Shown here one piece after another: positions 1 through 23,896 of a stretch of 40,078 nucleotides of DNA. Every line of letters begins with the position of its first letter. The stretch's first letter is position 1. The notes beneath the pieces are model-generated. The model did no database searches, was not told the DNA's origin, and was given only the letters and a program-made list of their open reading frames with translations. The position numbers and the translations under genes are program-made. The DNA is from a virus (taxonomy: Duplodnaviria > Heunggongvirae > Uroviricota > Caudoviricetes): the IMG/VR virus record IMGVR_UViG_2671181094_000008, positions 1-40,078 of that record. One strand, given 5' to 3'.

Positions 1-297
1 TTCGGTGAACGCACTATGGCGACGCTGGGGCGTCTTATGAGCCTGCTGTCACCCTTTGACGTGGTGATATGGATGACGGATGGCTGGCCGCTGTATGAAT
101 CCCGCCTGAAGGGAAAGCTGCACGTAATCAGCAAGCGATATACGCAGCGAATTGAGCGGCATAACCTGAATCTGAGGCAGCACCTGGCACGGCTGGGACG
201 GAAGTCGCTGTCGTTCTCAAAATCGGTGGAGCTGCATGACAAAGTCATCGGGCATTATCTGAACATAAAACACTATCAATAAGTTGGAGTCATTACC
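1..297 (+). mobile_element. IS1 right-end fragment, truncated by the window edge
   Basis: Encodes the InsB C-terminus ending ...HYLNIKHYQ and ends with the IS1 terminal inverted repeat AAGTTGGAGTCATTACC at 281..297. Whether the element is complete upstream cannot be seen. Confidence 0.85.
16..282 (+). CDS. insB: IS1 transposase InsB, C-terminal fragment (partial)
   Basis: The 88-aa translation matches my recollection of the IS1 InsB C-terminus; the ORF begins at the window edge region, so it is partial. Confidence 0.8.
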
Positions 298-315
298 GGG
301 CCATAGTTATTTCCA

Positions 316-346
316 TAAAAAAACCCGCACTAGGCGGGTTTTCTTA
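316..346. terminator. Bidirectional rho-independent terminator
   Basis: A-run, then 6-bp GC-rich stem ACCCGC/GCGGGT (323..339) with 5-nt loop, then TTTTCTT. It sits just 3' of the minus-strand acyltransferase gene. Confidence 0.6.
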
Positions 347-364
347 AACTGGTTAAAATATAGA

Positions 365-1423
365 TTAGGTTGTCACTTGCTTCGATTTTACGCTGAAAAA
401 ATTCTTTCTGAATCTTTCAGATGGATTTTCAACAATAAAATACATCGCTATACCAAATGCTATCACAAAACAAAATGATAGCATTGAAATCAACATTGAT
501 GAACTCTCTCTTGGTATAACCCAAAATACATAATTATATAGATAAATTGAAAAAGAACACTTACCAACAAATGAAAGCAATCTCACTACTATCGTAGGGT
601 TAACATTACCCTTGCCTCCAACAACAAACGACCACATAGAAATTGCCGCAAAAGTAGAAGCAACTATTTCATAAAGTTTAACATTGTTATTAAATCCATC
701 ACCCTTATAGAAAAGCATAACAACTAAAGCGACAATGGAAGATATCCTTATTGCTTTTAATTTACGAAAGCTTAAGCCACAGTCGGATGAGACAAACAAA
801 ACCCAACCCAAAACAAAAAGATAAAGGTAGGATATTATTGACCACGTCAACACCCTATCCACGGTTATAAGATTAATAACGATGGAAGATACAGCGCAAA
901 TCGCAAGCAATATAATTCTATTGCGATCTGTTTTGCAAATCAAAACAAAAATTGGCAACAACAAATAAAACTGCATTTCTACAGCTAACGACCAATAAAC
1001 ACCGCTAATGCTAAACATTGTACTTTCATTTAAGTTATGTATGAATGTCATGTGAGTTAAAATGTCATATATTCCAGTTGGCTTTTCTGCCACTCCATAA
1101 CATCTTATCAATACTATCCAAAACAAAATAGAAATGTAGTACGGAATCGCAATCCGTAGAAAACGCTTTGAGAAATAAAGAAAATAACTTGACTGTGAAA
1201 CACCATTTGAAAACATGTTTCTTGTTGACATTCCCATGCAGTACCCGGAAATAACGAAGAAAATCCCAACCCCTATCCATCCATTCCCAAATGGACCATA
1301 AAGGTCAAAATAGTTACCCAATGGCAGCCCACCAGAAGAAGACCAGAGGAAAATGTGGAACGATGTCACCAATAGAACAGCGACTCCTCTGAATGCATCT
1401 ATGATGTAGTTTCTTGTTTTCAT
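365..1423 (-). CDS. Acyltransferase family 3 membrane protein (OafA/Oac-like, candidate O-antigen acetyltransferase)
   Basis: 352-aa polytopic membrane protein with N-terminus MKTRNYIIDAFRGVAVLLV...FHIF typical of acyltransferase_3. Markedly AT-rich compared with the phage backbone, and placed beyond the tail genes as a moron. Confidence 0.75.
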   Translation of the reverse strand: MKTRNYIIDAFRGVAVLLVTSFHIFLWSSSGGLPLGNYFDLYGPFGNGWIGVGIFFVISGYCMGMSTRNMFSNGVSQSSYFLYFSKRFLRIAIPYYISILFWIVLIRCYGVAEKPTGIYDILTHMTFIHNLNESTMFSISGVYWSLAVEMQFYLLLPIFVLICKTDRNRIILLAICAVSSIVINLITVDRVLTWSIISYLYLFVLGWVLFVSSDCGLSFRKLKAIRISSIVALVVMLFYKGDGFNNNVKLYEIVASTFAAISMWSFVVGGKGNVNPTIVVRLLSFVGKCSFSIYLYNYVFWVIPRESSSMLISMLSFCFVIAFGIAMYFIVENPSERFRKNFFSVKSKQVTT

Positions 1424-1475
1424 ATGGAATTACCCAATTTTAGATCATTGGATTATACCACATAAGTAGAATTTA

Positions 1476-1988
1476 TCACCACCCAACAGCTACATAACTA
1501 AAATTATCCACGTTGCCTGATGATCCTGAGATCCATCCAAAAACATCAAACCCATTCAGGGTATGATTAGCTGACGACACATATCTATTCGTATCGGTAA
1601 TTTTTGACGGTATTACTGCAAGTACATTATTGGTAAAAGGTTTAGGGAAACTAACAGTACCAGACGATGCATTTATTACTGACTTTCCTGCTTGAATGGT
1701 AATCACCACATCGTTAAAAATATCTTTTACTGTAAAGCAAATCCCCAATGGGTTACTTTCCACCGTCACATTATTGCCAAGGAATCTTTTAATCGCTTTA
1801 AAAACTTGATTGTCATCCTCCGGGTTAAGCTCCATCCCTGAACCTTCCACCACGCCAATTAACTCGCGTTGGAAAGTGTTCAACATCTCGGCATTGATAA
1901 TAGTCGGTGAAATCCCATTAGCAACATTGCCATTAGTATATTCACCATTAGCATCAGCAGTATCTGTAGTGCTTCCAACTTTTCTCAT
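1476..1988 (-). CDS. Putative short tail-fibre / receptor-binding protein
   Basis: Lies directly downstream of the gp48-like gene where Mu-type tails place the fibre. The segment EMLNTFQRELIGVVEGSGMELNPEDDNQVFKAIKRF resembles a motif I recall in enterobacterial tail fibres. Only 170 aa and lower GC. Confidence 0.45.
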   Translation of the reverse strand: MRKVGSTTDTADANGEYTNGNVANGISPTIINAEMLNTFQRELIGVVEGSGMELNPEDDNQVFKAIKRFLGNNVTVESNPLGICFTVKDIFNDVVITIQAGKSVINASSGTVSFPKPFTNNVLAVIPSKITDTNRYVSSANHTLNGFDVFGWISGSSGNVDNFSYVAVGW

Positions 1989-2004
1989 GATTAACCTTTA
2001 AATG

Positions 2005-2688
2005 TTAGTTTCCTGAAATGTATCCAGAGGCGATATCAAAAATAGTTGCAAACTCAGGGGTAACTTCATACACCCCTTCGTCATTAAACCCAAAATAGAT
2101 ATAACCGAATTTTACAAGCGTATAGGATGGAGACAGCGCTGAAATGCGACACTCTAGTTGCCTGTTTCCCCATGAACGTAATGGGTCTCCGCAATAACTT
2201 ATCCCGACTCGGGAGTATGTTATATTCGTTTCCTCTCCTTCAACCATCCAGACAAATGGCCAGTCATCACCATTTAACCCATCACCACAAACTGATAATC
2301 CCGCTCGCGCCTGTCGGTATTCTTTAATTGAGATGGTATAACCCATTGCGGCAGCAATACTGATGAAATAGCTTTTTGACTGACCGCCGGTGCTTATTAA
2401 TTTTGAGACGATTGCATTTTGTCGCTTGGCGATTGTGTCGACCTCGCCAATGGAGCAATCATCAGGTAATCCGAGCGTATTTTCCCAGTCAGTAAGCATG
2501 ATGGTCGCTGTCTTCGGGAAAGCGCCACTAAGAAGAGCCTGAGCGTCATTATCACTACGTTGAAAACTCCTTGCCAGCGCTCGAAGCACTGCCGTCTGCA
2601 CTGCATTTTTATCTCGTGTCCAGGCTCTTCCTGACGGGATTAGTGCCTGTAGCGCTTTAAGGTAGTCGTCAGTTGAGAAGAGGCTCAT
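2005..2688 (-). CDS. Phage tail protein, Mu gp48-like (DUF2313 type)
   Basis: Position after the baseplate J gene and N-terminus MSLFSTDDYLKALQALIP...; start overlaps the upstream gene's stop. Confidence 0.55.
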   Translation of the reverse strand: MSLFSTDDYLKALQALIPSGRAWTRDKNAVQTAVLRALARSFQRSDNDAQALLSGAFPKTATIMLTDWENTLGLPDDCSIGEVDTIAKRQNAIVSKLISTGGQSKSYFISIAAAMGYTISIKEYRQARAGLSVCGDGLNGDDWPFVWMVEGEETNITYSRVGISYCGDPLRSWGNRQLECRISALSPSYTLVKFGYIYFGFNDEGVYEVTPEFATIFDIASGYISGN

Positions 2689-3833
2689 GTATAGTTCACC
2701 TCGCCACGAACGGCCATCTCCCCTATTCCCGGCTCAATATTTGCAGATGGGGAGACCAGAATAAAACCAGCCGTGCCTGAAACGTCCCCTATCGCACGGT
2801 TGAGGTCTGAAAGATAGATTTTTCCTGTTCCGAGAGGATCAGCAGATTCAAACAAAACACTGTCAATAGCGTCAGCTATAGCAGCAGTTGTCGTGCTACT
2901 CGCATCAGAGATACCGCTTATCTCAAAATCAATAACCAGCTCAGTAGGCGAACAGATGTAATTCAGGGAAGTCACAGGGGCAAGTGGGTACATATAATCG
3001 GCTACCCTTCCCTGATCGCCCGTGGCCTTTACTGCACCCCATTCTTCCAGTTGTGATACGCCATCCGTGCCAACCGGGAACCCATGGTTTGTCTTGTCGT
3101 TTCCATCACACATGATGTAAATCACAACGGTACCGGGACCCATTCCTCTACGGCGGACCCATGCACGTGTAACACCGGATACGGCCAGAGCCCATGTACG
3201 ATAATCCGTATCGCTCCCTCCTTGTGGTGGATTCTGGAACGCCAGCAGCCCCCGCTGTCGAAAATCTTCTTCATTTTCGATGTCGGCGCCGCCGGTAGCC
3301 GGTTCAATTAACGTAACCGAGCTGTCAATACCCGGCACGTTGGCATCCAGTGTCAGGAGCGTTCCGGCATCGGCATTTCCCCGGCTGCCACCGCCAGTGA
3401 TATCCTCTGAGATATCTGGTAGTCTGGCCGTCACCGCAACAGTAGCGCTGCCCGTGGAATCAATCATTACACTGGCGTCCGTGCTGTACTGGTAGCCATC
3501 CGCACGGTTAATTACAGAGCCCCTGGCTAAAACCCGCCCCGGTGTTCCGGTAATTTGCGCTGCCGGTGAGCGAGCCGCGGTCGCCGCTTTACGGTAGATC
3601 TGCTTCAACGCCATCCATCCGGCAAGCCATTCATCGGTTGATGTGAACGGCGTGCTCTGTCTGGCGATATAATCCAGATAGGCATAATGCAGGTGCGCCA
3701 TACCCGCGTCCATGTCGGCAAGCACTTTCAGATTACCGAATCGTAGCAGCGCGCCAACGTTCTCCAGCTCTGCCTGCATGAACTGGCGGTTCTCGTCACG
3801 GAGCTCACTCAGTGTTTTCCGTTTAAATGGCAT
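2685..3833 (-). CDS. Baseplate J-like protein (Mu gp47 / P2 gpJ family)
   Basis: 382 aa; gene order and size fit a Mu-like baseplate wedge protein. Confidence 0.7.
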   Translation of the reverse strand: MPFKRKTLSELRDENRQFMQAELENVGALLRFGNLKVLADMDAGMAHLHYAYLDYIARQSTPFTSTDEWLAGWMALKQIYRKAATAARSPAAQITGTPGRVLARGSVINRADGYQYSTDASVMIDSTGSATVAVTARLPDISEDITGGGSRGNADAGTLLTLDANVPGIDSSVTLIEPATGGADIENEEDFRQRGLLAFQNPPQGGSDTDYRTWALAVSGVTRAWVRRRGMGPGTVVIYIMCDGNDKTNHGFPVGTDGVSQLEEWGAVKATGDQGRVADYMYPLAPVTSLNYICSPTELVIDFEISGISDASSTTTAAIADAIDSVLFESADPLGTGKIYLSDLNRAIGDVSGTAGFILVSPSANIEPGIGEMAVRGEVNYT

Positions 3834-4272
3834 TATTCAGTTGCTCCCATAGCCAGAAGAATTTGAACTCCTGCCAGTCCCCTGCCGGCGGCAAATACCG
3901 GATGATCAGATTCAACCTGTCAGGGAAGACGATTTCCGATTGCGCCTGTATCTCTGCCACAATGCCATCCGATTTCATCCAGGCCAGCGCCTCTTCGGCA
4001 TAATCTTCCGCTCTCATCGCCACTTCGCGAGTCAGCTTTTCACGTCGCAGTAGCCACAGCCTTGAGCCAATATTCCGATCGTTGTCCAGATCACCCCACC
4101 AGCCGCGGCGGTCGGTTCCTTCATAATTGTCGTCAGCGCGCGCCAGCCCGTCGGTAAACAGGCTGATAATCACTGCCGTGTACATGTCATTTTCTGAGGT
4201 TAAGATGCCGTTTCCGGCCTGCCAGTCTGCGTGAAGGGCATCAACATTCCAGAAAGAGGAAATATCACTCAT
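3823..4272 (-). CDS. Phage GP46-like baseplate protein
   Basis: 149 aa, between the spike and J-like genes, overlapping its neighbours. Confidence 0.55.
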   Translation of the reverse strand: MSDISSFWNVDALHADWQAGNGILTSENDMYTAVIISLFTDGLARADDNYEGTDRRGWWGDLDNDRNIGSRLWLLRREKLTREVAMRAEDYAEEALAWMKSDGIVAEIQAQSEIVFPDRLNLIIRYLPPAGDWQEFKFFWLWEQLNNAI

Positions 4273-4850
4273 ACCTGACTCTCTGTTTTTTCGCTGGTTA
4301 TGGTGCTGTCACCGGACTGAACTTTTTTAACGTCATGGTCATGTTCATTGTGAGCATCACGCAGTTCTTTGAGCGTTTTATCGTTCGTCTCACAGTTATC
4401 GATGACGTCTCCGGTCACCAGAAGTCTGGGGGTAACCAGCTTTACCTGCTCCGTTGCCGTCGCAGTGATGTTTGCAGCATTGCTGATCTCTACATCCTTA
4501 CCTTTGGCATCAATGAAAATGCCCGACTCGGTCAGATGGATATTCAGCCCCCACTGGTTGTAGACTACCGTTTCCCCTGGTTTCAGCCCGGTATGTCGAT
4601 AGCCCTGATGGTTAGAGGCGATGACGACGGGGCTGGAACGATCACCTCCCAGAAATGCAATAACCACATCAGCACCTGCCGGTAGCCCCGATGAAAAGCC
4701 AAAATCAGAAAACCGCGGCGCGCTGGCCACTTCCAGCGGGGTCTGATACTGCACTTCCTGTACCACCCCGCTATCTTTCTGGCTGGTAATACGACCAATG
4801 CCCAGCATGCCCGCGATGCGGGTCGCCGCTTTTCTTAAATTTTGAATCAT
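4269..4850 (-). CDS. Baseplate assembly protein V / spike (Mu gp45-like)
   Basis: 193 aa, in the conserved position between hub and gp46. Confidence 0.6.
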   Translation of the reverse strand: MIQNLRKAATRIAGMLGIGRITSQKDSGVVQEVQYQTPLEVASAPRFSDFGFSSGLPAGADVVIAFLGGDRSSPVVIASNHQGYRHTGLKPGETVVYNQWGLNIHLTESGIFIDAKGKDVEISNAANITATATEQVKLVTPRLLVTGDVIDNCETNDKTLKELRDAHNEHDHDVKKVQSGDSTITSEKTESQV

Positions 4851-5932
4851 TGGTTTAATCCCGGGATTTGCTGATAGAAGGCACAGGGCTGGACGCTGAA
4901 GGCTTCCGGCGGTAGCAGGTACATTCTGGCGTGAGTGCCGTCGCTGTCTCTGATGTAGGTCACCTCAGCAATCAGCATTTCCGTATCCGGAAGTTGCATT
5001 GAGGGGATATTTACCGGGATCAGCGTGTTCGGCTCCCAGAGTTTTCCCGCTTTATCGCGCCAGGAATCAATCGTGACGCTCAATGGCTTTGAGCGGCCGT
5101 ATCGTCGGTTCATCTCCCAGTCGATGGCGCGCTGCGCCTGCTGGGATGCCATCAGCGTACTTTCAACGATAATGATCCGTTTCCGGTAGCGCATGCTTGC
5201 CGCCTCCGGATCACGCGCTGTCGCCAGCGTCACCGAGTCATAAGCTGTATCCGGTGAGAATCCTGCAATCGGAGAAATGCTCATCGATACGCCGACGTAA
5301 TCAGAAAAGCGGTCTGCCATCGAACGGCGGTAATAAGCCTGTTCGATATTTACCCCTTCAGCGATACCGCTGGACGCGCGCTTTGCGCCCACCCGGGTAA
5401 GAAATAAATTGCCGTCAGGCTGATCGTAATAGAGCAGAGCTGACCAGCGGGAGACCCGTTCAAGTATTTCCTGCGGCGACTCCCCCCAGTTGAGCGTGAA
5501 CTGGGGAACGCTGACTAAATCATCGATATCAGTAGAAACCGTAATGTCGTAATACGATGCAAGCCTGGATGCTATATCCAGCGCATTGCCGCCGTTGATA
5601 ACGTTGTTCGGCCATTCTGCCGAGCAATCGACAAGATCACAGCACTTATTGCGCCCCGTTGCCCTGACTTCATGGCGAGACCGGGAAAGTGATGGTGACC
5701 AGTCGTCTACATAGCCTGTTATAACCAGATCGCTGCCTAGTTTTACCTGGCAGGGCATCCCCTCCTTCACCAGCTGTTTCTGATCACTACCGGGAAAATA
5801 ATCCATCAGACCCAGATCAAAATCGGAGGGGAAACGCTCAATGCCGCGGGTCACCCGCACAGAATCCCACCCCTCAATAACTTTCCCGCCCACAGTCAGA
5901 GAGACGATATCCTGATCGTTATCCGTACTCAT
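4847..5932 (-). CDS. Baseplate hub protein (Mu P / P2 gpD late-control-D family)
   Basis: 361 aa, directly downstream of the DNA-circularisation gene. Confidence 0.6.
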   Translation of the reverse strand: MSTDNDQDIVSLTVGGKVIEGWDSVRVTRGIERFPSDFDLGLMDYFPGSDQKQLVKEGMPCQVKLGSDLVITGYVDDWSPSLSRSRHEVRATGRNKCCDLVDCSAEWPNNVINGGNALDIASRLASYYDITVSTDIDDLVSVPQFTLNWGESPQEILERVSRWSALLYYDQPDGNLFLTRVGAKRASSGIAEGVNIEQAYYRRSMADRFSDYVGVSMSISPIAGFSPDTAYDSVTLATARDPEAASMRYRKRIIIVESTLMASQQAQRAIDWEMNRRYGRSKPLSVTIDSWRDKAGKLWEPNTLIPVNIPSMQLPDTEMLIAEVTYIRDSDGTHARMYLLPPEAFSVQPCAFYQQIPGLNQ

Positions 5933-7329
5933 TGTCTCAACACCTTCATCGTCGTCGGCATAAACGCCGGATGCGGCACACTGGCTTCCTGTATCAGTTC
6001 ATTTGCCCGTAAGGCATCCTGATACAGACGGTTAGCCATAACCAGTGCAGGAATGGGCAGCGTGGTATTAACCTGCATCAGATCACTCAGCCCGGCTGAA
6101 ATCTGGGACATGGTGTCCAGGAAGGCGCTTCTCACTGTCATCAGCGCGCTATAGAGATCGTCATCCGCCCGGTCGCCCGCCAGAAGTAACGCTGCATCCA
6201 GCTGCGTGGCCACGCGTTGCGTGATTTCCTCGGTCTCATTACGACTGGTAGGGTTGTAATCGGCCGCCGCATTCGTCATCGCCCCGCTGCACAGCACAAT
6301 GATGAGCGTATTCATTGTGCCAGCCAGTTGCTGGCTACTTTCGGATCGCTGGTATTCGGTACTGGTTGATGCCGCCAGTTTTTCAAACGCAGCAATTTTA
6401 TCGCTCACGCTGCCGGCGCTGGTCAGAATGCGATTAATAACATCGGCAACGCCCTGAACAAATTCATCAGCAGATACCGATTCATTCAGTGCAGCGGTCG
6501 TATCAAGTACAGCCTGTCGGTCCATCACGGCCTGTGCGGAAACTAGTTCAGATAAAGCCTGATAGTCTTCTGTATCGTCAGCATCACGATTTCCGTTAAT
6601 ACCCGAAGAACTCCCGCCAACCGTCCCTTTGCTGTACCGACCGTACCGGTTGTTCCCGAAGGTGGAATTCAGCACGTTACTGACGTTCGTCACCTCACTG
6701 ATGGTGTTGTCCACCATATTGGTCCAGAACGTCACGGTTCCCTTTATGGTCTTAATCCCCTGGCTCACGCCGCGGATCTCACTTTTGATTCTCGCCAGGG
6801 TACTGGCAACCGCCGTGCTGACCAACTTCAGATAGTTGGTGCCGACGGTGTCACCCGCGGCGGTGCTGTCTGTAATGGCGAAGACCTTTAACCCCGACTC
6901 AATCACCATCAGGGTAAACTCAAACGAACGACCATTATCGGCGGAGCCGGAGAGTCTTAACCCGTTCTCAGGTATGGAAACGGTCATTTCCCCCAGCGTG
7001 GGGTGAATGAGCGTACCGCTCCCCTTAGCTTCACACGCATTAATCAACGCCTGTCGCTGGGAAATGACATCCCCGCCACCGTAGACCAGACTGTTCTGGA
7101 CGATAAAACCACGGATAATAAATCGCCGCGTCCCTCGCCCCATGTCCTCAATCCAGGCGGTATCACGGTATGGATATTCGTGGACGGCCTGCCGGCGACC
7201 ATGGCTGCCTTCCTCATTAACCACAGCAAAGGGCACGCCACGGAAGGAGCCTGGCCGTAATTGACCCAGCCAGTCCTCACTACCGCCTCCGCCCATCAGG
7301 GAAGTTATTGCATCCTGAATAATTGCCAT
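5929..7329 (-). CDS. DNA circularisation protein (Mu N / gp43-like)
   Basis: 466 aa with N-terminus MAIIQDAITSLMGGGG...GVPFAVVNEEGSHGRR typical of the family; sits between tape measure and hub. Confidence 0.65.
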   Translation of the reverse strand: MAIIQDAITSLMGGGGSEDWLGQLRPGSFRGVPFAVVNEEGSHGRRQAVHEYPYRDTAWIEDMGRGTRRFIIRGFIVQNSLVYGGGDVISQRQALINACEAKGSGTLIHPTLGEMTVSIPENGLRLSGSADNGRSFEFTLMVIESGLKVFAITDSTAAGDTVGTNYLKLVSTAVASTLARIKSEIRGVSQGIKTIKGTVTFWTNMVDNTISEVTNVSNVLNSTFGNNRYGRYSKGTVGGSSSGINGNRDADDTEDYQALSELVSAQAVMDRQAVLDTTAALNESVSADEFVQGVADVINRILTSAGSVSDKIAAFEKLAASTSTEYQRSESSQQLAGTMNTLIIVLCSGAMTNAAADYNPTSRNETEEITQRVATQLDAALLLAGDRADDDLYSALMTVRSAFLDTMSQISAGLSDLMQVNTTLPIPALVMANRLYQDALRANELIQEASVPHPAFMPTTMKVLRQ

Positions 7330-7342
7330 CGGGCCTCCGGAA

Positions 7343-7367
7343 TAAAAAAACCGCCAGGGCGGCGGTT
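7343..7367 (-). terminator. Intrinsic terminator-like hairpin inside the late tail operon
   Basis: On the minus strand the stem ACCGCC/GGCGGT is followed by TTTTTTTATT; located between the tape-measure stop and the next gene's start. Confidence 0.45.
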
Positions 7368-7375
7368 TAAACGGG

Positions 7376-9229
7376 TTAGTAATTCATGGCGGTTGTTATT
7401 CTGCCATTATCCTCAACGTTATAGGTTTTCTTCTCCCCCTTATCATTGACCAGGGTGATTTCCAGCTTCATTTTCTGATCGGCCATCGCCTCTTTGAGAG
7501 ACCGGGTCAGGTTTTCACTGGCTGCCTCTCTCCCGTTGCCGGAGGCTGTCAGGATAGAAGAGCTGTCAAACGTATCAGGCTGAGGCGCGAGGATATTCTG
7601 TCTCTGCTGGCTGAGTACACTACTATCACGAAGACCTGACCAACGCGGGTCACTGATGGCCGTTTGAATTGCAGCCTGTATCTCATCTTCAGAATATGGC
7701 TGCGCGCCATTCTCATGCTGAATCATGGCTGCCATGACAGATTTCAGTACTTCCGGGTTATGCAGATCCATCCGCTGCTGGGGCTGAAATCCCGTCGCGG
7801 CTGAGACTGAATTGATATAGGACTGAGTGTCATTTTCTGACCGCGGCGCATAGGTGTGGATCATGCTGTTCAGCGTGTTATTCCCACGATCGCCATATAA
7901 CATCAGCTGCCTGGCCATTGCCGCCAACCCGTCGTTGCTATTGTCATAAGTGACGAAACCACGATTCACCCCGGTCGCATTAGGCGCTATCCGGAGATTG
8001 CCCGGGTTATTATTTCTGAGGCCCAGCGCCTGGTTAGATGGCTGGCTGTAATTCACCTCCCCGCGTGGAGCTGCTGCACCTGCTGGCAGGATAACAGACA
8101 AATCATTACGGAGTTGTTCAGCTCTGTCACTGGCGCCATATTGCGCGTCGTAGCGTTTCCGGACGGCATCCGTCATAAAGCCGGCATCTACCGCCCCGCG
8201 CTCACGCCGGGAAAGGGTGTTATACAGCGCTTTATCACCCTGAATGCGGCGTAGCTTCCCGGCATCCTTGCTACTGATAAACCCCAGCGCATGCGACAGC
8301 CCGGTGAAATCGCCATTCGTGAACAAGTCGGTCACACCTTCGAGACCGTCTTTCACCGAACCATCGGAAAGCAATCCCTTAAACAGAGAGTTTTTCGAAC
8401 GTTTTTTCAGCCCATCCCATGCTGCGCCCAGCTCATTCATGGTGCCGTTAACCTCGGACAATTGCCGGTTAAGTTCCAGATCAACCGTCAGGCCAAGTTC
8501 ATCAGATTTAGCCAGCAATGCTTTCATCCGTACGCCTTCACGCATCAGCGCCAGCATTTCCGGCGTCAATCCGAGGGCATCGGAAACCGACTTCTGCTGG
8601 TCAGGACGCAGGCTCGGGAAAACGCGCGCTATCGACTCCAGCGTTCTCAGCGTATCAACGGAGCCGTCATTGTTTTTCTGGATCTGAACGCCAATCTGCG
8701 ACAATGCGCCAAGCACCTGGCTGTTGGCACCGCTGGCGGCCTCCTTCAGGCTTTTAGCCATCCCCTCGATGGAAGCGTTGGCACTGTCACCATCAGCCCC
8801 CAGTATCCGCATGGCGCCGGACAGTCTGGAAAAATCCTCCACCCGCATACCCGCATTTTTCGCGGCAACATCGAGGTTATAGGCTTCCCTTGAGGCCTCA
8901 TGGAAACCGTAGGCAATCTGTTTTAACCCGTATCCCGCCGCCCCGACCACGCCCAGCGACGCCAGCTTACCGGAGAGCTCACCGACCATCTTCAGCGGCG
9001 GCACCATATCCCCGATATACTGCACGTTATCACGGGCATTTTTGGACAGATTTTCGAAGCGGGAGATAAAGCCGTTCAGGCCATCGAGGGTCTCCTGTCC
9101 TCCTAACTGGAGTCCCTCTTTGGTTTTATCCAGCTTTGGCTCCAGATCACGGATAGCCTCATTGATACGCTCAATGGCTTCCGTCGCCTGATCGCTGGCC
9201 ACCAGCTCAAAGTCGAAAGAATTACTCAT
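7376..9229 (-). CDS. Tail tape measure protein
   Basis: 617-aa protein placed between the chaperone pair and the DNA-circularisation gene. Confidence 0.65.
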   Translation of the reverse strand: MSNSFDFELVASDQATEAIERINEAIRDLEPKLDKTKEGLQLGGQETLDGLNGFISRFENLSKNARDNVQYIGDMVPPLKMVGELSGKLASLGVVGAAGYGLKQIAYGFHEASREAYNLDVAAKNAGMRVEDFSRLSGAMRILGADGDSANASIEGMAKSLKEAASGANSQVLGALSQIGVQIQKNNDGSVDTLRTLESIARVFPSLRPDQQKSVSDALGLTPEMLALMREGVRMKALLAKSDELGLTVDLELNRQLSEVNGTMNELGAAWDGLKKRSKNSLFKGLLSDGSVKDGLEGVTDLFTNGDFTGLSHALGFISSKDAGKLRRIQGDKALYNTLSRRERGAVDAGFMTDAVRKRYDAQYGASDRAEQLRNDLSVILPAGAAAPRGEVNYSQPSNQALGLRNNNPGNLRIAPNATGVNRGFVTYDNSNDGLAAMARQLMLYGDRGNNTLNSMIHTYAPRSENDTQSYINSVSAATGFQPQQRMDLHNPEVLKSVMAAMIQHENGAQPYSEDEIQAAIQTAISDPRWSGLRDSSVLSQQRQNILAPQPDTFDSSSILTASGNGREAASENLTRSLKEAMADQKMKLEITLVNDKGEKKTYNVEDNGRITTAMNY

Positions 9230-9413
9230 CGGGTTTGGTATTCCTGAGTTTATTGATACGGGTGGCCTGCGATACCCACCACTTCAGACGGGCATAGGTC
9301 ATGCCCCACGCCCTGTCTTCTGTCCAGCGGAAATAAAATGTGACGTCAGCGGCCGTTTCCTGCCAGGCGGTCAGGGCTTCCAGGTCAAAAAACCGAGCAA
9401 AAACTCCTCGCAT
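9222..9413 (-). CDS. Tail assembly chaperone, -1 frameshift extension (gpE'/GT-like)
   Basis: Overlaps the 3' end of the upstream chaperone ORF in the -1 frame; slippery heptamer TTTTTTG (minus strand, plus coordinates 9386..9392) lies in the overlap. Confidence 0.55.
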   Translation of the reverse strand: MRGVFARFFDLEALTAWQETAADVTFYFRWTEDRAWGMTYARLKWWVSQATRINKLRNTKPDE

Positions 9414-9649
9414 TTTCGGAAGTCGATAAAATCCATCGGCTGAAGCACACTTTCCCGCGTATCCGTGACCAGCGAGATCAGCAGACGCATTGCCGCCAGA
9501 GAAGTGGACGATGTCTGCTTTTCGTAGAACTGCTCTGCCTGGCTGAGCGTCGGTGCCTTCAGCTCCAGTTGCTCATAGCGCGTTTTTTGCGCCTCATCGA
9601 CAAGAGGCTTGATGAGAGGAATGACTTTGGTGCGTTCAAGTTCTGCCAT
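9371..9649 (-). CDS. Tail assembly chaperone (gpE/G-like)
   Basis: 92-aa ORF between tube and tape measure genes, containing the slippery site near its 3' end. Confidence 0.6.
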   Translation of the reverse strand: MAELERTKVIPLIKPLVDEAQKTRYEQLELKAPTLSQAEQFYEKQTSSTSLAAMRLLISLVTDTRESVLQPMDFIDFRKCEEFLLGFLTWKP

Positions 9650-9650
9650 C

Positions 9651-10022
9651 TTAGTTCTCCGTTACGTCCCGACCTTCCCAGCGAACATCAAACACTGCGT
9701 CTTCGCTTTCCACCTCCTGAACGTTAACCGTCCAGAGTGCGCGACCGATAATAGTCTTTCCGTTCGCCAGCTCGGCGATCACGTTGACGTTCGTCTGACC
9801 GTTAAACCCCAGCACGTTAGTCCCGCCACTGTCACGCAGACGGGCTGAAATATACGGGGCAACCGGTTTTTCTTTATAACCATGTACTCCGTCCATGCCT
9901 GTCAGCGTGGTGCGATTGACAGTAGCTGACTGGTATTTAAACGAACCCTCCACCATCACAGTCACCCCATTGACGGTGACATAAGCGGTACCCGCCAGGC
10001 GGTTAGTGGTATCTCCTGCCAT
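9651..10022 (-). CDS. Contractile tail tube protein
   Basis: 123 aa, immediately downstream of the sheath gene. Confidence 0.7.
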   Translation of the reverse strand: MAGDTTNRLAGTAYVTVNGVTVMVEGSFKYQSATVNRTTLTGMDGVHGYKEKPVAPYISARLRDSGGTNVLGFNGQTNVNVIAELANGKTIIGRALWTVNVQEVESEDAVFDVRWEGRDVTEN

Positions 10023-10025
10023 GAT

Positions 10026-11537
10026 TTATGCTCCTGTTGACTCAGCCTGCAGGCGGAACTGATTAAGCAACGCGAAGATGCGCAACTGGTTCATAAGCGT
10101 TCCCGGCCACAGTACGTCAACGCGGTTCGGGTTCGTTTTGTTCTGCTCAACAATAATGTTTCTGGCAAAGGCCTCTTCGTCCTGCGCATAGCCGTTAAAG
10201 ACCAGCGTCTGGTATTCCGCAATCTGATCGGCCCTGATGATGTTAGGTGTCACAATCGCCGCCCCCGGCGCAAAACGCGTGCCGTCCGCGGCCAGCTTCA
10301 TGCGACCAAATTTACTGGTGACTGCAGTGCGGAGATATCGCGTGACAAACATCAGGCTGAACAGCGTTTCCACCTGCAGGTAACTGTCGTCTTCGTCGCC
10401 ATAGCTGTTTTTCTGGTAGGTGGTAATCAGGTTTTCAATCATCACCGTCCCGTCATCACCTACGGTGTAAGTGGAGATGCCGCTGTACAGCAGGTTGTTG
10501 CGCTCTGTCAGCTCAAAGCGATCCGCCAGATCCGGCGCCAGCACGCCATAAACAGGCAGACTTTGTAGCGGGCGTCCGGGGTCGTTACGCAGGCTGGGTG
10601 CGGCGGCCCCAGTCAGTGCCGCCGCCCAGATATAACGCGGTGACGGTGAGCGATACACGCCAAGCAGTGACTCATGCTGGTTATTACGGGTTTCCCCTTT
10701 GGTGCCAAGCTCAGCGTAAGTGCCGTTGGTGGTAGTGAAAGCGTGGCCATAAAGCTGTTTATCCCATGCCCAGCGGCCGGTTGCATCGTTCAGAAATTCT
10801 CTGATGGCATCCAGTGATGCGGTGTCATCATAAGGGTTGATGACAAAATCAAAGGTCTTATCCTGCAGGTTGCCCAGGGCATCAACAAAATCCGGCGCAC
10901 CGGCGCCGCCGGCCATGCCCGTGATGGTCAGCGTCAGTCCTGCGGGCGTCACCTCACCACCCTGAACACCGAGATAATTCAGCCTGATATCAATACCATT
11001 GCCCAGTAACCCGGCATTCTTGGCCGTCAGTGTCAAGGTATCTGTGGCATCGGCTTTTACAGCAGCGGTCACCGGCAGTTCCGTTTTACGGGTAATCGCC
11101 GCGACCAGCGCAGTGGCAATCTGAGCCGGAGTGTCAGTCGCCAGTACGGTCAGTTGTACGCGAACACCAGCAATATAAAGAGAGATAACGCCGGTTTCTG
11201 TCGCCTGTGTGGCAACCTTGATACTGCCTGTTGCCACTGCCATCGAATCCGCATCATCAGCCAGCGGAAGGATCCAGACCTCCGCAGCAGTATCGTTTTT
11301 TTGATACGCCGTCATCATGCCATGTAGCATTGAGCCTTTTCCGGTAAGCTCACCCACCGCATTGGGAGAAGAGACTTTTACCGGGATTTTTTCCTGTGCA
11401 GAGCCCGATGCCAGCATCTGACCAATCAGCAGCGTTCGCTGTGTAGCGGTCGCCGTGTTGGCCATGGAGTTATCAAACTCCACATAAAAAAGCGGCACAC
11501 GTAAATTGCCGGGAACTCGCGAAAATGGAACGGTCAT
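10026..11537 (-). CDS. Contractile tail sheath protein
   Basis: 503 aa, in the canonical sheath-tube-chaperone-tape measure order. Confidence 0.8.
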   Translation of the reverse strand: MTVPFSRVPGNLRVPLFYVEFDNSMANTATATQRTLLIGQMLASGSAQEKIPVKVSSPNAVGELTGKGSMLHGMMTAYQKNDTAAEVWILPLADDADSMAVATGSIKVATQATETGVISLYIAGVRVQLTVLATDTPAQIATALVAAITRKTELPVTAAVKADATDTLTLTAKNAGLLGNGIDIRLNYLGVQGGEVTPAGLTLTITGMAGGAGAPDFVDALGNLQDKTFDFVINPYDDTASLDAIREFLNDATGRWAWDKQLYGHAFTTTNGTYAELGTKGETRNNQHESLLGVYRSPSPRYIWAAALTGAAAPSLRNDPGRPLQSLPVYGVLAPDLADRFELTERNNLLYSGISTYTVGDDGTVMIENLITTYQKNSYGDEDDSYLQVETLFSLMFVTRYLRTAVTSKFGRMKLAADGTRFAPGAAIVTPNIIRADQIAEYQTLVFNGYAQDEEAFARNIIVEQNKTNPNRVDVLWPGTLMNQLRIFALLNQFRLQAESTGA

Positions 11538-22929: not shown

Positions 22930-23004
22930 TGGAGCATCTGGCGGGGATCGAACCCGCATTTTCTGGTTGGAAGCCAGATGTAATTACCAAACTACGACAG
23001 ATGC
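22930..23004 (-). tRNA. Phage-encoded tRNA, anticodon UCC by manual folding (tRNA-Gly-like)
   Basis: 75-nt cloverleaf: acceptor GCATCTG/CAGATGC, D-loop with GG, anticodon stem TCTGG/CCAGA, loop CTTCCAA, T-arm GCGGG-TTCGATC-CCCGC, discriminator T and encoded CCA. Confidence 0.7.
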
Positions 23005-23194: not shown

Positions 23195-23223
23195 AATATG
23201 ACGTATTTAATTGACTTTTGCAA
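23195..23223 (-). promoter_or_regulatory. Candidate late promoter (pR'-like) at the 3' end of the Q gene
   Basis: On the minus strand TTGCAA, 17-nt spacer, CATATT; overlaps the Q stop region and points toward the tRNA and lysis genes. Confidence 0.3.
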
Positions 23224-23896
23224 GACCCTGCTGCGAAAAAGTCGCTTTTTGTTGTGATCGTGTTCTCACAGCACAGAGAAGAGAGTCGCTATCAAGCCGC
23301 TTAAAAATGGCGCACATAGCCCGCCAGTAATCAGCGTAGTTATGGCACCAGTTATCAGGCTTAACGCCACACAGGGCTGCAAGGTCCTGGTGCTGATATA
23401 CATACTTACCCGCCAGCTCTGCTTTCACGTCCTGTGCCGCCAGCCATATCAGTTTCTTCAGCCGCTCCATCGTCTTGCCGGCCACTTTCTTAGCGCCGAG
23501 TTGATCACGGAATTCTTCCCATGCCCACTGTGTTATCGCTACCTGATACTCAAAGCGGATATTGTCGCTGTAGTTCCACAGCAACCAGGATTTCTGGTGG
23601 TCTTCCAGCGACAGGAGGGCGCGGCGCCAGCTGGCTGTCGAGTATTCAACGGGCAGAACGAGAGCGATTGAGGAACCCTTAGCGCGGCACTGGCTGCCGC
23701 TCATCGGCGGTCCATCCGGGTTAACCATTTTTTGCTTCACCTCGCTATACACCTTCTTCCGGCCACGGCTGCGCGCCGTAGCGGTAAATTGCGCGTTCTC
23801 TGCAAAAGCTACCAGTTGCCCTTTCGTCGCACCACTCAGATCGGCGGTGGCCACTATCAGCTGCTGGCGAACAAATTCCAAGTATTGAGCTGTCAT
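23207..23896 (-). CDS. Antitermination protein Q-like
   Basis: 229 aa, located between the nin-like region and the tRNA/lysis cassette as in lambdoid phages. Confidence 0.65.
   Translation of the reverse strand: MTAQYLEFVRQQLIVATADLSGATKGQLVAFAENAQFTATARSRGRKKVYSEVKQKMVNPDGPPMSGSQCRAKGSSIALVLPVEYSTASWRRALLSLEDHQKSWLLWNYSDNIRFEYQVAITQWAWEEFRDQLGAKKVAGKTMERLKKLIWLAAQDVKAELAGKYVYQHQDLAALCGVKPDNWCHNYADYWRAMCAIFKRLDSDSLLCAVRTRSQQKATFSQQGLAKVN

Follow-up and report, generated by a model that had tools for sequence, protein, structure and literature searches.

The receptor-binding locus at the left end of the prophage analysed here (the window, positions 1 to 40,078 of IMG/VR record IMGVR_UViG_2671181094_000008) probably consists of a complete short tail fibre gene, an acyltransferase gene carried as a lysogenic-conversion moron, and a large tailspike gene that has been cut by IS1 and fused to a second receptor-binding cassette. 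Such a locus is an ordinary kind of prophage feature, and the unusual point is the arrangement made by IS1. The genome is that of a lambdoid prophage of E. coli whose tail is contractile and Mu-like; positions 1-1988 form the distal end of its late (tail) operon, and position 1 is the end of source contig CXYS01000033.1 (assembly GCA_001269125.1), inside IS1. Shigella, which IS1 might suggest as the source, was set aside, since the exact matches of proteins and flanks are to E. coli. A sequence-only reading of this region had reported an IS1 end, an AT-rich acyltransferase gene, a terminator and a short fibre gene, and all four were found in place. Rfam and repeat searches of the locus returned nothing relevant. 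The features discussed below are as follows.

1-297, + strand: right-hand 297 bp of IS1, with the insB C-terminus at 16-282 and the terminal inverted repeat at 281-297
298-316, - strand: remnant of the tailspike 5' end, ATGGAAATAACTATGGCCC, colinear with intact relatives up to exactly this base
317-342, - strand: intrinsic terminator of acylA, stem 324-328/334-338, loop ACTAG, U7 on the - strand
365-1423, - strand: acylA, AT3-only membrane acyltransferase, 352 aa, GC 0.348 (PF01757, E 4.4e-25; PHROG O-acetyltransferase, E 6.5e-38)
1452-1479, - strand: sigma-70 promoter-like site for acylA, GTGATA-16 nt-TG-n-TATAAT, overlapping the fibre stop codon
1476-1988, - strand: complete short tail fibre, 170 aa, directly after the gp48-like gene (PF21882 and PHROG tail-fibre matches)
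2005-2688, - strand: Mu gp48-like baseplate wedge protein (PF10076, E 2.5e-31)
23207-23896, - strand: Q antiterminator (PF06323, E 3.7e-79)

The short fibre in a three-part locus

The receptor-binding locus of this phage family has three parts: a short fibre, a "slot" and a large tailspike. The short fibre combines a conserved N-terminus of about 70 aa with an exchangeable lectin-like head; the slot is filled by an AT3 acyltransferase or a fibre chaperone, or is empty; and the tailspike joins an N-terminal anchor, conserved over about 130 aa, to an exchangeable enzymatic body, usually an SGNH/SASA acetyl-esterase, and is followed by a virion protein of 240-300 aa. Because a short fibre is a regular part of this locus, the 170-aa gene is a complete short fibre and not a stump. 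Its product has a conserved baseplate-attachment N-terminus (about residues 1-70) matching several PHROG tail-fibre families, two helices, and a gp53/R-pyocin-like lectin head at residues 74-169 (Gp53-like_C, PF21882, E 6.6e-07, 30.2 bits against a cut-off of 24.9). The AF2 model has a pLDDT of 80 overall and of 84-96 for the blocks covering residues 81-170; Foldseek searches with this model returned R1 and R2 pyocin fibres and AP22 gp53 (E 6e-6 to 5e-5), then H-type lectins, as well as a match to 4mtm. The R-type pyocin fibre foot and the head of Acinetobacter phage AP22 gp53 are trimeric sugar-binding heads whose fold matches that predicted for residues 74-169; in contrast to them, the fibre described here is nearly without a shaft (170 aa in total), and the sequence identity is 14-16%. 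A PDB sequence search with the fibre gave nothing useful, and a scan of species-representative genomes with the same protein gave a single N-terminal match (Raoultella), too little for a survey of the family.

The short fibre-like ORF after the gp48-like gene had been reported to lack a long fibre or a chaperone behind it, and neither a long fibre gene nor a Caudo_TAP chaperone gene was found in positions 1-2000 of the window. This lack, together with a length that is short next to the Mu S or P2 H fibres, would fit a stump of a longer fibre gene, which is very improbable given that the fibre has the same length in intact relatives, that all 120 homologues among the matches listed are shorter than 300 aa, and that the predicted head is a complete fold ending in the conserved C-terminal motif of the family. 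The suggestion that the fibre gene had been truncated or remodelled was thus not upheld: the alignment with related phages proposed as a check revealed the same short fibre without a chaperone in the intact relatives L004-L007, L032, L034 and MB51, and its homologue p23 (162 aa) is encoded by BZS1, an isolated phage that forms virions. Protein p23 is not among the 13 proteins found in BZS1 virions by mass spectrometry (PMC7556043). Members of the short-fibre family are 155-294 aa long and share the same N-terminus. An easy annotation error is thereby corrected, as a fibre of this size after gp48 is normal in a widespread group of Enterobacteriaceae prophages, in which the main host-range determinant is the tailspike further downstream, behind the conversion gene.

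A close known counterpart is Serratia phage vB_SspM_BZS1 (MT843275), which is likewise lambdoid and temperate, with the module at the end of a Mu-like tail operon, and has the same gene order: Mup48, a short gp53-like fibre, an AT3 acyltransferase, a large esterase protein and a virion protein of about 300 aa. Its fibre is 52% identical to the 170-aa fibre over residues 1-125. The BZS1 acyltransferase gene, in contrast to acylA, which is co-oriented and alone, lies on the opposite strand with an XRE/HTH gene and a small membrane gene. The esterase p27 and the protein p28 of BZS1 were detected in virions by mass spectrometry (PMC7556043). Four intact Klebsiella relatives (L004-L007) likewise encode this 170-aa fibre and this acyltransferase, with a tailspike gene behind them, at identities to the window of 99.2-99.4% for L004, L006 and L007 and about 82% for L005, and the intact relative MB51 has the same fibre-acyltransferase-tailspike order. 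Compared base by base with L008 and L004, the window shows 8 differences in 1-7300 and an indel near 7351.

The acyltransferase gene as a putative moron

The acylA product matches Pfam Acyl_transf_3 over residues 5-327 (88.9 bits against a cut-off of 31). The hallmarks of AT3 proteins are R/K-X10-H in TMH1, FFXISG, RXXR and an invariant Gly equivalent to OafA G202 (PMC7448272); in AcylA they are R12-X10-H23, FFVISG at 55-60, R87xxR90 (R87-F-L-R90) and G206, all invariant in an alignment with BTP1 GtrC and c341 gp15. A crude Kyte-Doolittle scan found at least 7 strongly hydrophobic 19-residue segments (the AT3-only architecture has ten transmembrane helices), and at 352 aa the protein is too short to hold an SGNH domain as well. 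Its nearest homologues from phages are O-antigen acetylases; identity to any characterised phage acetylase is only 24-28%. Sf6 Oac, SPC32H Oac, BTP1 GtrC and c341 gp15 share the AT3 domain with R/K-X10-H, FFXISG and RXXR; in BTP1 GtrC and c341 gp15, both of 640 aa, an SGNH domain is fused to AT3, whereas AcylA, like Oac, consists of AT3 alone. The genes for these phage O-antigen acetyltransferases are AT-rich and adjoin a tailspike or fibre gene at the prophage end, as acylA does, but they lie next to the integrase gene and acylA sits between two virion genes.

The GC content of acylA compares with 0.519 for the whole window, 0.54 for gp47 and 0.565 for an intact tailspike homologue. Its promoter-like site, a consensus match only, has 10/12 consensus positions and an extended -10 and is the best such site in 1-2800; it is identical in L004 and L005 and partly conserved in MB51 (TGtTATCAT). 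The terminator, CCCGC-ACTAG-GCGGG at 324-338 flanked by A7 and T4CTT, had been called bidirectional: it is strong on the - strand, at the end of acylA, where the RNA folds with -19.9 kcal/mol (z = -3.07) ahead of the U7, and possible but weaker on the + strand. A consensus terminator scanner run over the region did not list it, probably because the stem is extended by A-U pairs at the expense of the U-run. MB51 keeps the stem with a changed loop, and the tailspike ATG overlaps the U-run of the terminator in intact relatives. In this cassette type acylA is co-oriented with the late operon and would hence also be transcribed late, a point against the moron model.

The morons of lambdoid phages are said, after Juhala and colleagues in 2000, to be promoter-gene-terminator units inserted between late genes. 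Likewise, acylA has a deviant GC content, a promoter-like site and a terminator, and is inserted between two genes that are adjacent in L022, where the fibre is directly followed by the tailspike; in L027 and L028 the slot holds a Caudo_TAP chaperone. The presence of a Q antiterminator in the same phage is a further likeness. These features, together with the full set of AT3 motifs and the O-antigen acetylases as nearest phage homologues, suggest that the acyltransferase gene was rightly taken for a moron; it is no terminal add-on, however, but lies between two receptor-binding genes. We propose that acylA is most likely expressed in the lysogen from its own promoter and that its product O-acetylates a surface polysaccharide, either O-antigen or capsule; the lysogen would thereby acquire a different serotype and no longer adsorb related phages (lysogenic conversion or superinfection exclusion). 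During lytic growth, by analogy with lambdoid biology, RNA polymerase modified by Q would run past the acylA terminator and go on to transcribe the tailspike gene. Acetyltransferases are carried by 5-30% of Klebsiella prophages per K-locus (PMC13123978).

The interrupted tailspike gene and the IS1 junctions

The element lost here is a separate large tailspike gene after the acyltransferase gene. Positions 298-316 are the reverse complement of its first 19 nt; the true start is likely the second ATG, leaving only 7 nt (298-304), and IS1 lies 7 nt into the ORF (19 nt from the upstream ATG). Past the remnant, intact relatives continue into a 916/920-aa ORF (L004, L006 and L007) or a 742-aa ORF (L032 and L034). 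The closest intact relative is L032 (99.89%), with a 742-aa SASA-like tailspike whose SASA match is only "faint". Assignment of the cut gene to the 920-aa Klebsiella type specifically was rejected, the 742-aa type being equally possible, as the remaining 19 nt are common to both. In relatives the large receptor-binding protein is a tailspike of 640-1370 aa encoded just after the acyltransferase; most are SGNH/SASA acetyl-esterases, and the N-terminal anchor is common to bodies with CotH, SGNH, SASA, BNR and other domains.

The 920-aa homologue and a tail spike of Klebsiella phage KpS8 share 54% identity. The homologue is SGNH-like, with GDS, GQNN and DxxH blocks in which D635-S636, G695/N697/N698 and D875/H878 are invariant in 24 homologues, and it has a predicted esterase fold that matches CE2 and GDSL esterases in Foldseek. 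No Pfam family matched this protein, not even when the C-terminal third was searched at E <= 1, and its esterase assignment therefore rests on the conserved blocks and the predicted fold; PDB sequence searches with the tailspike and with its profile gave nothing useful. Known esterase tailspikes include G7C gp63.1, the Vi-phage acetyl esterases and the SGNH fibres of Klebsiella prophages, the last being active esterases (PMC13123978). SGNH/SASA domains likewise stand behind the conserved N-terminal anchor in the intact homologues and in the tailspike beyond IS1; unlike these known systems, the window keeps just 7-19 nt of its gene, and the esterase activity of the homologues is predicted from sequence and fold.

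Over positions 1-297 the match to IS1 is perfect (297/297 nt; copies in phage P1, RCS47 and others). The stretch codes for the last 88 aa of InsB (PF03400, E 5.7e-48) and ends in the terminal repeat ...aagttggagtcattacc. The far side of IS1 is known from L008 and L033, two E. coli assemblies that share the left junction of the window, which itself stops inside IS1. As to whether IS1 is complete and flanked by a duplication, the element proved complete (768 bp) in both assemblies and the target-site duplication proved absent: the flanks in L008 are ctatggccc and gtcgccttg, the same as in L033, where a simple insertion would leave 8-9 bp duplicated. Unlike flanks without a duplication point to a rearrangement after, or instead of, simple insertion. 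The right flank comprises the 3'-terminal 60 nt of another short-fibre gene; it encodes RLEGNAAPLNNFMWLSIGA and the stop, the C-terminus of a 165-aa fibre with the native context gp48-fibre-[AT3, 87 aa, 57 aa]-tailspike. An exact-match IMG/VR search with the sequence right of IS1 returned no match; a protein-based search identified L014 as its uninterrupted context. We propose that in L008 and L033 the left point was joined to the end of this second fibre gene either by a deletion that IS1 mediated or by recombination of two IS1 copies with each other. The presumed IS-associated remodelling of the receptor-binding region is thus borne out in that IS1 stands at the remodelled junction and cuts the tailspike ORF, while the short fibre is untouched.

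Since the window begins at a contig end within IS1, and short-read drafts break in repeats, the junction might be taken for an assembly artefact. We give this almost no credence: the left junction, ATGGCCC/GGTAATGAC, is identical in at least six independent assemblies on two baseplate backgrounds, and contigs of 4.7 Mb and 236 kb cross the complete IS1 to identical right junctions, both junctions of L008 and L033 being the same. A literature search for IS1 in fibre genes yielded only unrelated papers on P1 and Sf6.

The second cassette and exchange of receptor-binding genes

Beyond IS1 the resolved assemblies encode a second, unrelated acyltransferase, a small opposite-strand HTH gene, an SASA esterase tailspike and a 266-aa protein. 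In L008 the SASA tailspike (663/672 aa; PF03629, E 1.4e-12 for the 672-aa protein) is intact and carries the same anchor at its N-terminus, and its 266-aa partner is intact too. L033 has just the start of the tailspike in the locus, a frameshifted second acyltransferase and no late region, and is clearly a decayed prophage. The BZS1-type trio thus occurs here only beyond IS1, whereas BZS1 itself has one cassette and no IS1. The circulating cassette has a recombination breakpoint at about 2500, within the gp48-like gene: L039 and L033 differ from the window by at most 1 mismatch in 1-2500 and diverge by about 4% beyond.

The state of L033 fits a reading in which IS1 simply knocked out the only functional tailspike, leaving a defective remnant in which the DNA past IS1 is irrelevant debris. 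IS1 removed all but 7-19 nt of the tailspike ORF and, as a polar element, lies between the late operon and everything downstream. We nevertheless regard this reading as unlikely. The resolved assemblies lack the target duplication, the far side of IS1 in L008 supplies an intact anchored tailspike with its partner, and the tail, head, lysis, Q, CI and integrase ORFs of the window are all open; moreover, the cassette with IS1 stands on two diverged baseplate backgrounds and so has survived at least one recombination. We infer that a tailspike gene cut by IS1 and fused to a second cassette may still be compatible with virion formation, and the chimeric allele may also persist in dead prophages.

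In another reading, acylA, rather than being mainly a conversion gene, is functionally tied to the adjoining virion proteins. Its product might hide the sugar to which the lectin head of the short fibre binds; or acyltransferase and esterase tailspike might act as a write/erase pair, with acetylation of the dying cell's surface keeping progeny from being trapped. In six comparisons the fibre head and the acyltransferase were co-inherited (fibre at least 98.8%, acyltransferase 98-100%) with unrelated tailspike bodies, and the same tailspike body (99.8%) was found with a different fibre/acyltransferase pair (69% and 58%). The orientation of acylA and the prevalence of acetyl-esterases among the partner tailspikes fit such a tie, and the authors of the BZS1 study have speculated on an acetylase/deacetylase pair (PMC7556043). 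Yet plain adjacency predicts the same co-inheritance, because the fibre N-terminus and the tailspike N-terminal anchor are the only conserved recombination substrates. In addition, other relatives have the acyltransferase gene in the reverse orientation or behind the tailspike gene, or have a chaperone gene in its place, and one partner tailspike is a CotH-domain protein and not an esterase. A functional tie is accordingly rather improbable, and conversion remains our preferred role for acylA. A bolder scheme, to which we assign a still lower probability, has the lectin head and the acyltransferase as matched "reader" and "writer" of one acetylated sugar epitope moving as a unit, with the esterase tailspike as an independently exchangeable "eraser"; the IS1 fusion would then have stacked two writers in a still-transmissible phage and widened the set of related phages excluded.

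The junction is a concrete case, sampled repeatedly, in which an insertion sequence has joined two receptor-binding cassettes. The fused product carries two unrelated genes with a predicted surface-acetylating function and a swapped tailspike, and host range and the surface chemistry of the lysogen may both have shifted in one step. Klebsiella and E. coli prophages share these fibre, acyltransferase and tail genes at 99.2-100% identity, which bears on phage traffic across genera and on the prediction of serotype and K-type from genomes.

Gene content and the end of the source contig

The window encodes a Q antiterminator, a CI-type repressor, lysozyme, Rz, a lambda gpA-type terminase and a tyrosine integrase, as well as a Mu-like set of sheath, tube and baseplate proteins; this gene content marks the phage as lambdoid and temperate, with a contractile tail. 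A tRNA-Gly gene (anticodon TCC; 22930-23004, minus strand) separates the Q antiterminator from the lysis genes (Rfam 60.6 bits; ARAGORN). Contig CXYS01000033.1 of the E. coli draft assembly GCA_001269125.1 matches the window at 100% identity and ends at window position 1; the source assembly thus stops inside IS1, whose far side was read in other assemblies. The features that the sequence-only reading described at 1-1988, namely an IS1 end, an AT-rich acyltransferase and a 170-aa fibre after gp48, were all recovered.

Features at the left end of the window
1-297: right-hand end of IS1, matching copies in P1, RCS47 and other records at 100% identity
within 1-297: C-terminal 88 codons of insB (PF03400, E 5.7e-48)
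297: end of the IS1 terminal repeat
365-1423, minus strand: 352-aa Acyl_transf_3 acyltransferase (PF01757, E 4.4e-25; GC 0.348)
1476-1988, minus strand: 170-aa short tail fibre, tail-fibre N-terminus and Gp53-like_C head (PF21882; GC 0.394)
2005-2688: Mu-like gp48; the short fibre comes after gp48, gp47, gp46, gp45, gp44 and gp43

For comparison, the GC content is 0.54 in gp47 and 0.519 in the whole window.

The short fibre and the large tailspike

The proposal that the short fibre is truncated or remodelled is contradicted by its relatives. The same 170-aa gene without a following chaperone is found in intact Klebsiella prophages (L004-L007), L032, L034 and E. coli MB51, and the isolated Serratia phage vB_SspM_BZS1 (BZS1) has a 162-aa homologue at the equivalent position. 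Among 5.8 billion proteins searched, 125 relatives came up; the 120 listed are all shorter than 300 aa (complete ones 155-294 aa), sharing the first ~70 residues and varying in the small head (PF21882, Gly_rich_2 PF21722, collar PF07484 or PF21939). In some relatives further removed, whose fibre has 177 aa, the next slot holds a Caudo_TAP chaperone, so its absence here is a property of the fibre subtype and not a loss. The 170-aa short fibre is therefore complete and normal for its relatives. Its AlphaFold model (mean pLDDT 80; 84-96 in blocks covering residues 81-170) is disordered at the N-terminus and then forms two helices and a compact beta head. The receptor-binding ends of R1/R2 pyocin fibres and AP22 gp53 are its top structural matches (E 6e-6 to 5e-5), and H-type lectins come next.

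A 177-aa gp53-like fibre (301 collection blocks) with a Caudo_TAP chaperone behind it lies at ~4400-7000 in each of three Klebsiella elements (L019, L020, L021) with a D5/primase gene and without baseplate genes, which look like P4-type satellites carrying their own fibre. In the metagenomic locus L014, a 2-nt insertion near the 3' end of a 165-aa fibre gene (5275-5306) shifts the frame and cuts the product to 155 aa.

Every intact relative compared encodes a 640-1370-aa protein after the acyltransferase, with the first ~130 residues conserved and the remainder exchangeable. Phage records with this N-terminal domain number 89, of which 78 are Klebsiella, and database proteins 1855; the domain is joined to CotH, SGNH (PF13472), SASA (PF03629), BNR_4, GH28-like and other bodies. 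The 920-aa tailspike of L004 shows 54% identity over 92% of its length to a tail spike of Klebsiella phage KpS8. It has no Pfam match; SGNH blocks GDS (D635, S636), GQNN (G695, N697, N698) and DxxH (D875, H878) are invariant in 24 homologues, and its model (pLDDT 75) resembles a CE2 carbohydrate esterase, YxiM and GDSL lipases. Acetyl-esterase activity has been demonstrated for SGNH fibres of Klebsiella prophages (PMC13123978). Mass spectrometry of BZS1 virions detected the esterase p27, counterpart of the tailspike, and p28, the protein encoded next; p23, homologue of the short fibre, did not appear in the set detected (PMC7556043).

The 920-aa protein (L004 11108-13870) also gave a Foldseek match to chains J and K of the Sf11 phage tail, both of them short at 55-59 residues (PDB 9occ; 36-38% identity). 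The MB51 tailspike body behind the anchor (L001 2511-4442, minus strand) is a CotH kinase-family domain (PF08757, E 1.7e-19), which is also found in many Klebsiella prophages and is unexpected for a receptor-binding protein.

The IS1 junction and the chimeric locus

The sequence-only reading held up in part: its fibre truncation fell, and its IS1-associated remodelling of the receptor-binding region stood. The window is colinear with intact relatives up to exactly base 298, and 298-316, read as reverse complement, is ATGGAAATAACTATGGCCC, with which the tailspike ORF begins; since most gene calls use the second ATG, just 7 nt of that ORF are left. The closest intact relative, L032 (99.89% over 298-6488), runs on into a 742-aa SASA-like tailspike and the Klebsiella relatives (99.2-99.4%) into the 920-aa one. 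The cut tailspike may be of either type, the remnant being common to both.

IS1 is read through in two E. coli assemblies, L008 (4.7-Mb contig, next to yecD-aspS) and L033, with both junctions identical. The element is complete (768 bp), and its flanks, ctatggccc and gtcgccttg, show that the target-site duplication looked for there is absent. To its right, RLEGNAAPLNNFMWLSIGA followed by a stop codon forms the C-terminal end of a short fibre of 165 aa. Where this fibre gene is undisturbed (L014, L017, L018), the order is gp48, fibre, three opposite-strand genes (353-aa acyltransferase, 87-aa HTH protein, 57-aa protein) and tailspike. Past the remnant, L008 carries the cassette that goes with this fibre: a second acyltransferase, only 24% identical to that of the window, the 87-aa gene, an intact 663/672-aa SASA tailspike (PF03629, E 1.4e-12) and a 266-aa protein. 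The locus is thus chimeric, with IS1 linking two receptor-binding cassettes. Either an IS1-mediated deletion, such as one spanning a tandem double lysogen, or recombination between IS1 copies of two related phages could have produced it.

Opposite-strand acyltransferases are always accompanied by the conserved 87-90-aa HTH protein (L008 13041-13304, L012 7660-8143, L017 3384-3857; -), possibly a regulator dedicated to the conversion gene, and often by a 57-aa membrane protein. This block, including the tailspike start, shows 75% DNA identity between E. coli and BZS1.

The left junction, ATGGCCC joined to GGTAATGAC, is identical in six assemblies, comprising three isolates and three gut-metagenome contigs that end in or at IS1. 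L033 and another related locus, L039, differ from the window by no more than one mismatch in 1-2500 and by ~4% from ~2500 on. The IS1-bearing cassette therefore occurs on two or more baseplate backgrounds, and the breakpoint falls within gp48. The L033 prophage is decayed, with a Phage_rep_O N-terminus fused to gp44 domains (563-1621; the whole late region deleted) and the second acyltransferase broken by a frameshift into ORFs of 169 and 146 aa (7043-8097), so that persistence of the allele is no proof of phage viability. Across 298-11422, the tail, fibre and acyltransferase genes share 99.2-99.4% identity with those of Klebsiella pneumoniae prophages L004/L006/L007, the best of 5,426 complete E. 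coli genomes reaches only ~90%, and the acyltransferase protein is annotated MULTISPECIES Enterobacteriaceae; these findings suggest recent cross-genus exchange between E. coli and Klebsiella prophages. An indel at ~7330-7376, in the short spacer from gp43 to the tape-measure gene, throws naive positional comparison of the window with L008/L004 out of register.

The acyltransferase and its linkage to the fibre

The acyltransferase is AT3-only, like Oac, and its nearest phage homologues are O-antigen acetylases (24-28% identity). It has all the motifs common to characterised AT3 carbohydrate acetyltransferases, R/K-X10-H, FFXISG, RXXR and an invariant glycine (PMC7448272), as R12-X10-H23, FFVISG (55-60), R87xxR90 and G206, invariant in alignment with BTP1 GtrC and c341 gp15. 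The gene has the best sigma-70-like site of the region, GTGATA-16-TG-n-TATAAT (1479-1452; 10/12 consensus match), which is unchanged in L004 and L005 and retained in part in MB51. The terminator is strong (-19.9 kcal/mol, z = -3.07, U7), and MB51 conserves its stem with a different loop. The terminator U-run and the start codon of the tailspike gene overlap in intact relatives, so that tailspike expression would need read-through, which the phage's own Q antiterminator would supply by analogy with lambdoid biology.

In six comparisons the same fibre (≥98.8%) and the same acyltransferase (98-100%) accompany unrelated tailspike bodies, and one tailspike body (99.8%) is paired with a different fibre and acyltransferase (69% and 58%). 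Fibre head and acyltransferase thus form one exchange unit and the tailspike body another. Adjacency between two conserved recombination substrates is enough to explain the linkage; a functional pairing is possible but less likely. The layout has been described for BZS1, whose authors speculated on an acetylase/deacetylase pair (PMC7556043). In Salmonella phage c341, a classical example of O-antigen deacetylation, an O-antigen acetylase gene likewise adjoins the tailspike gene. A 2026 report covers the prevalence of SGNH esterase fibres and acetyltransferases in Klebsiella prophages (PMC13123978). New here are this member, the placement of a co-oriented acyltransferase between fibre and tailspike, the co-inheritance of fibre and acyltransferase, and the IS1-made double cassette.
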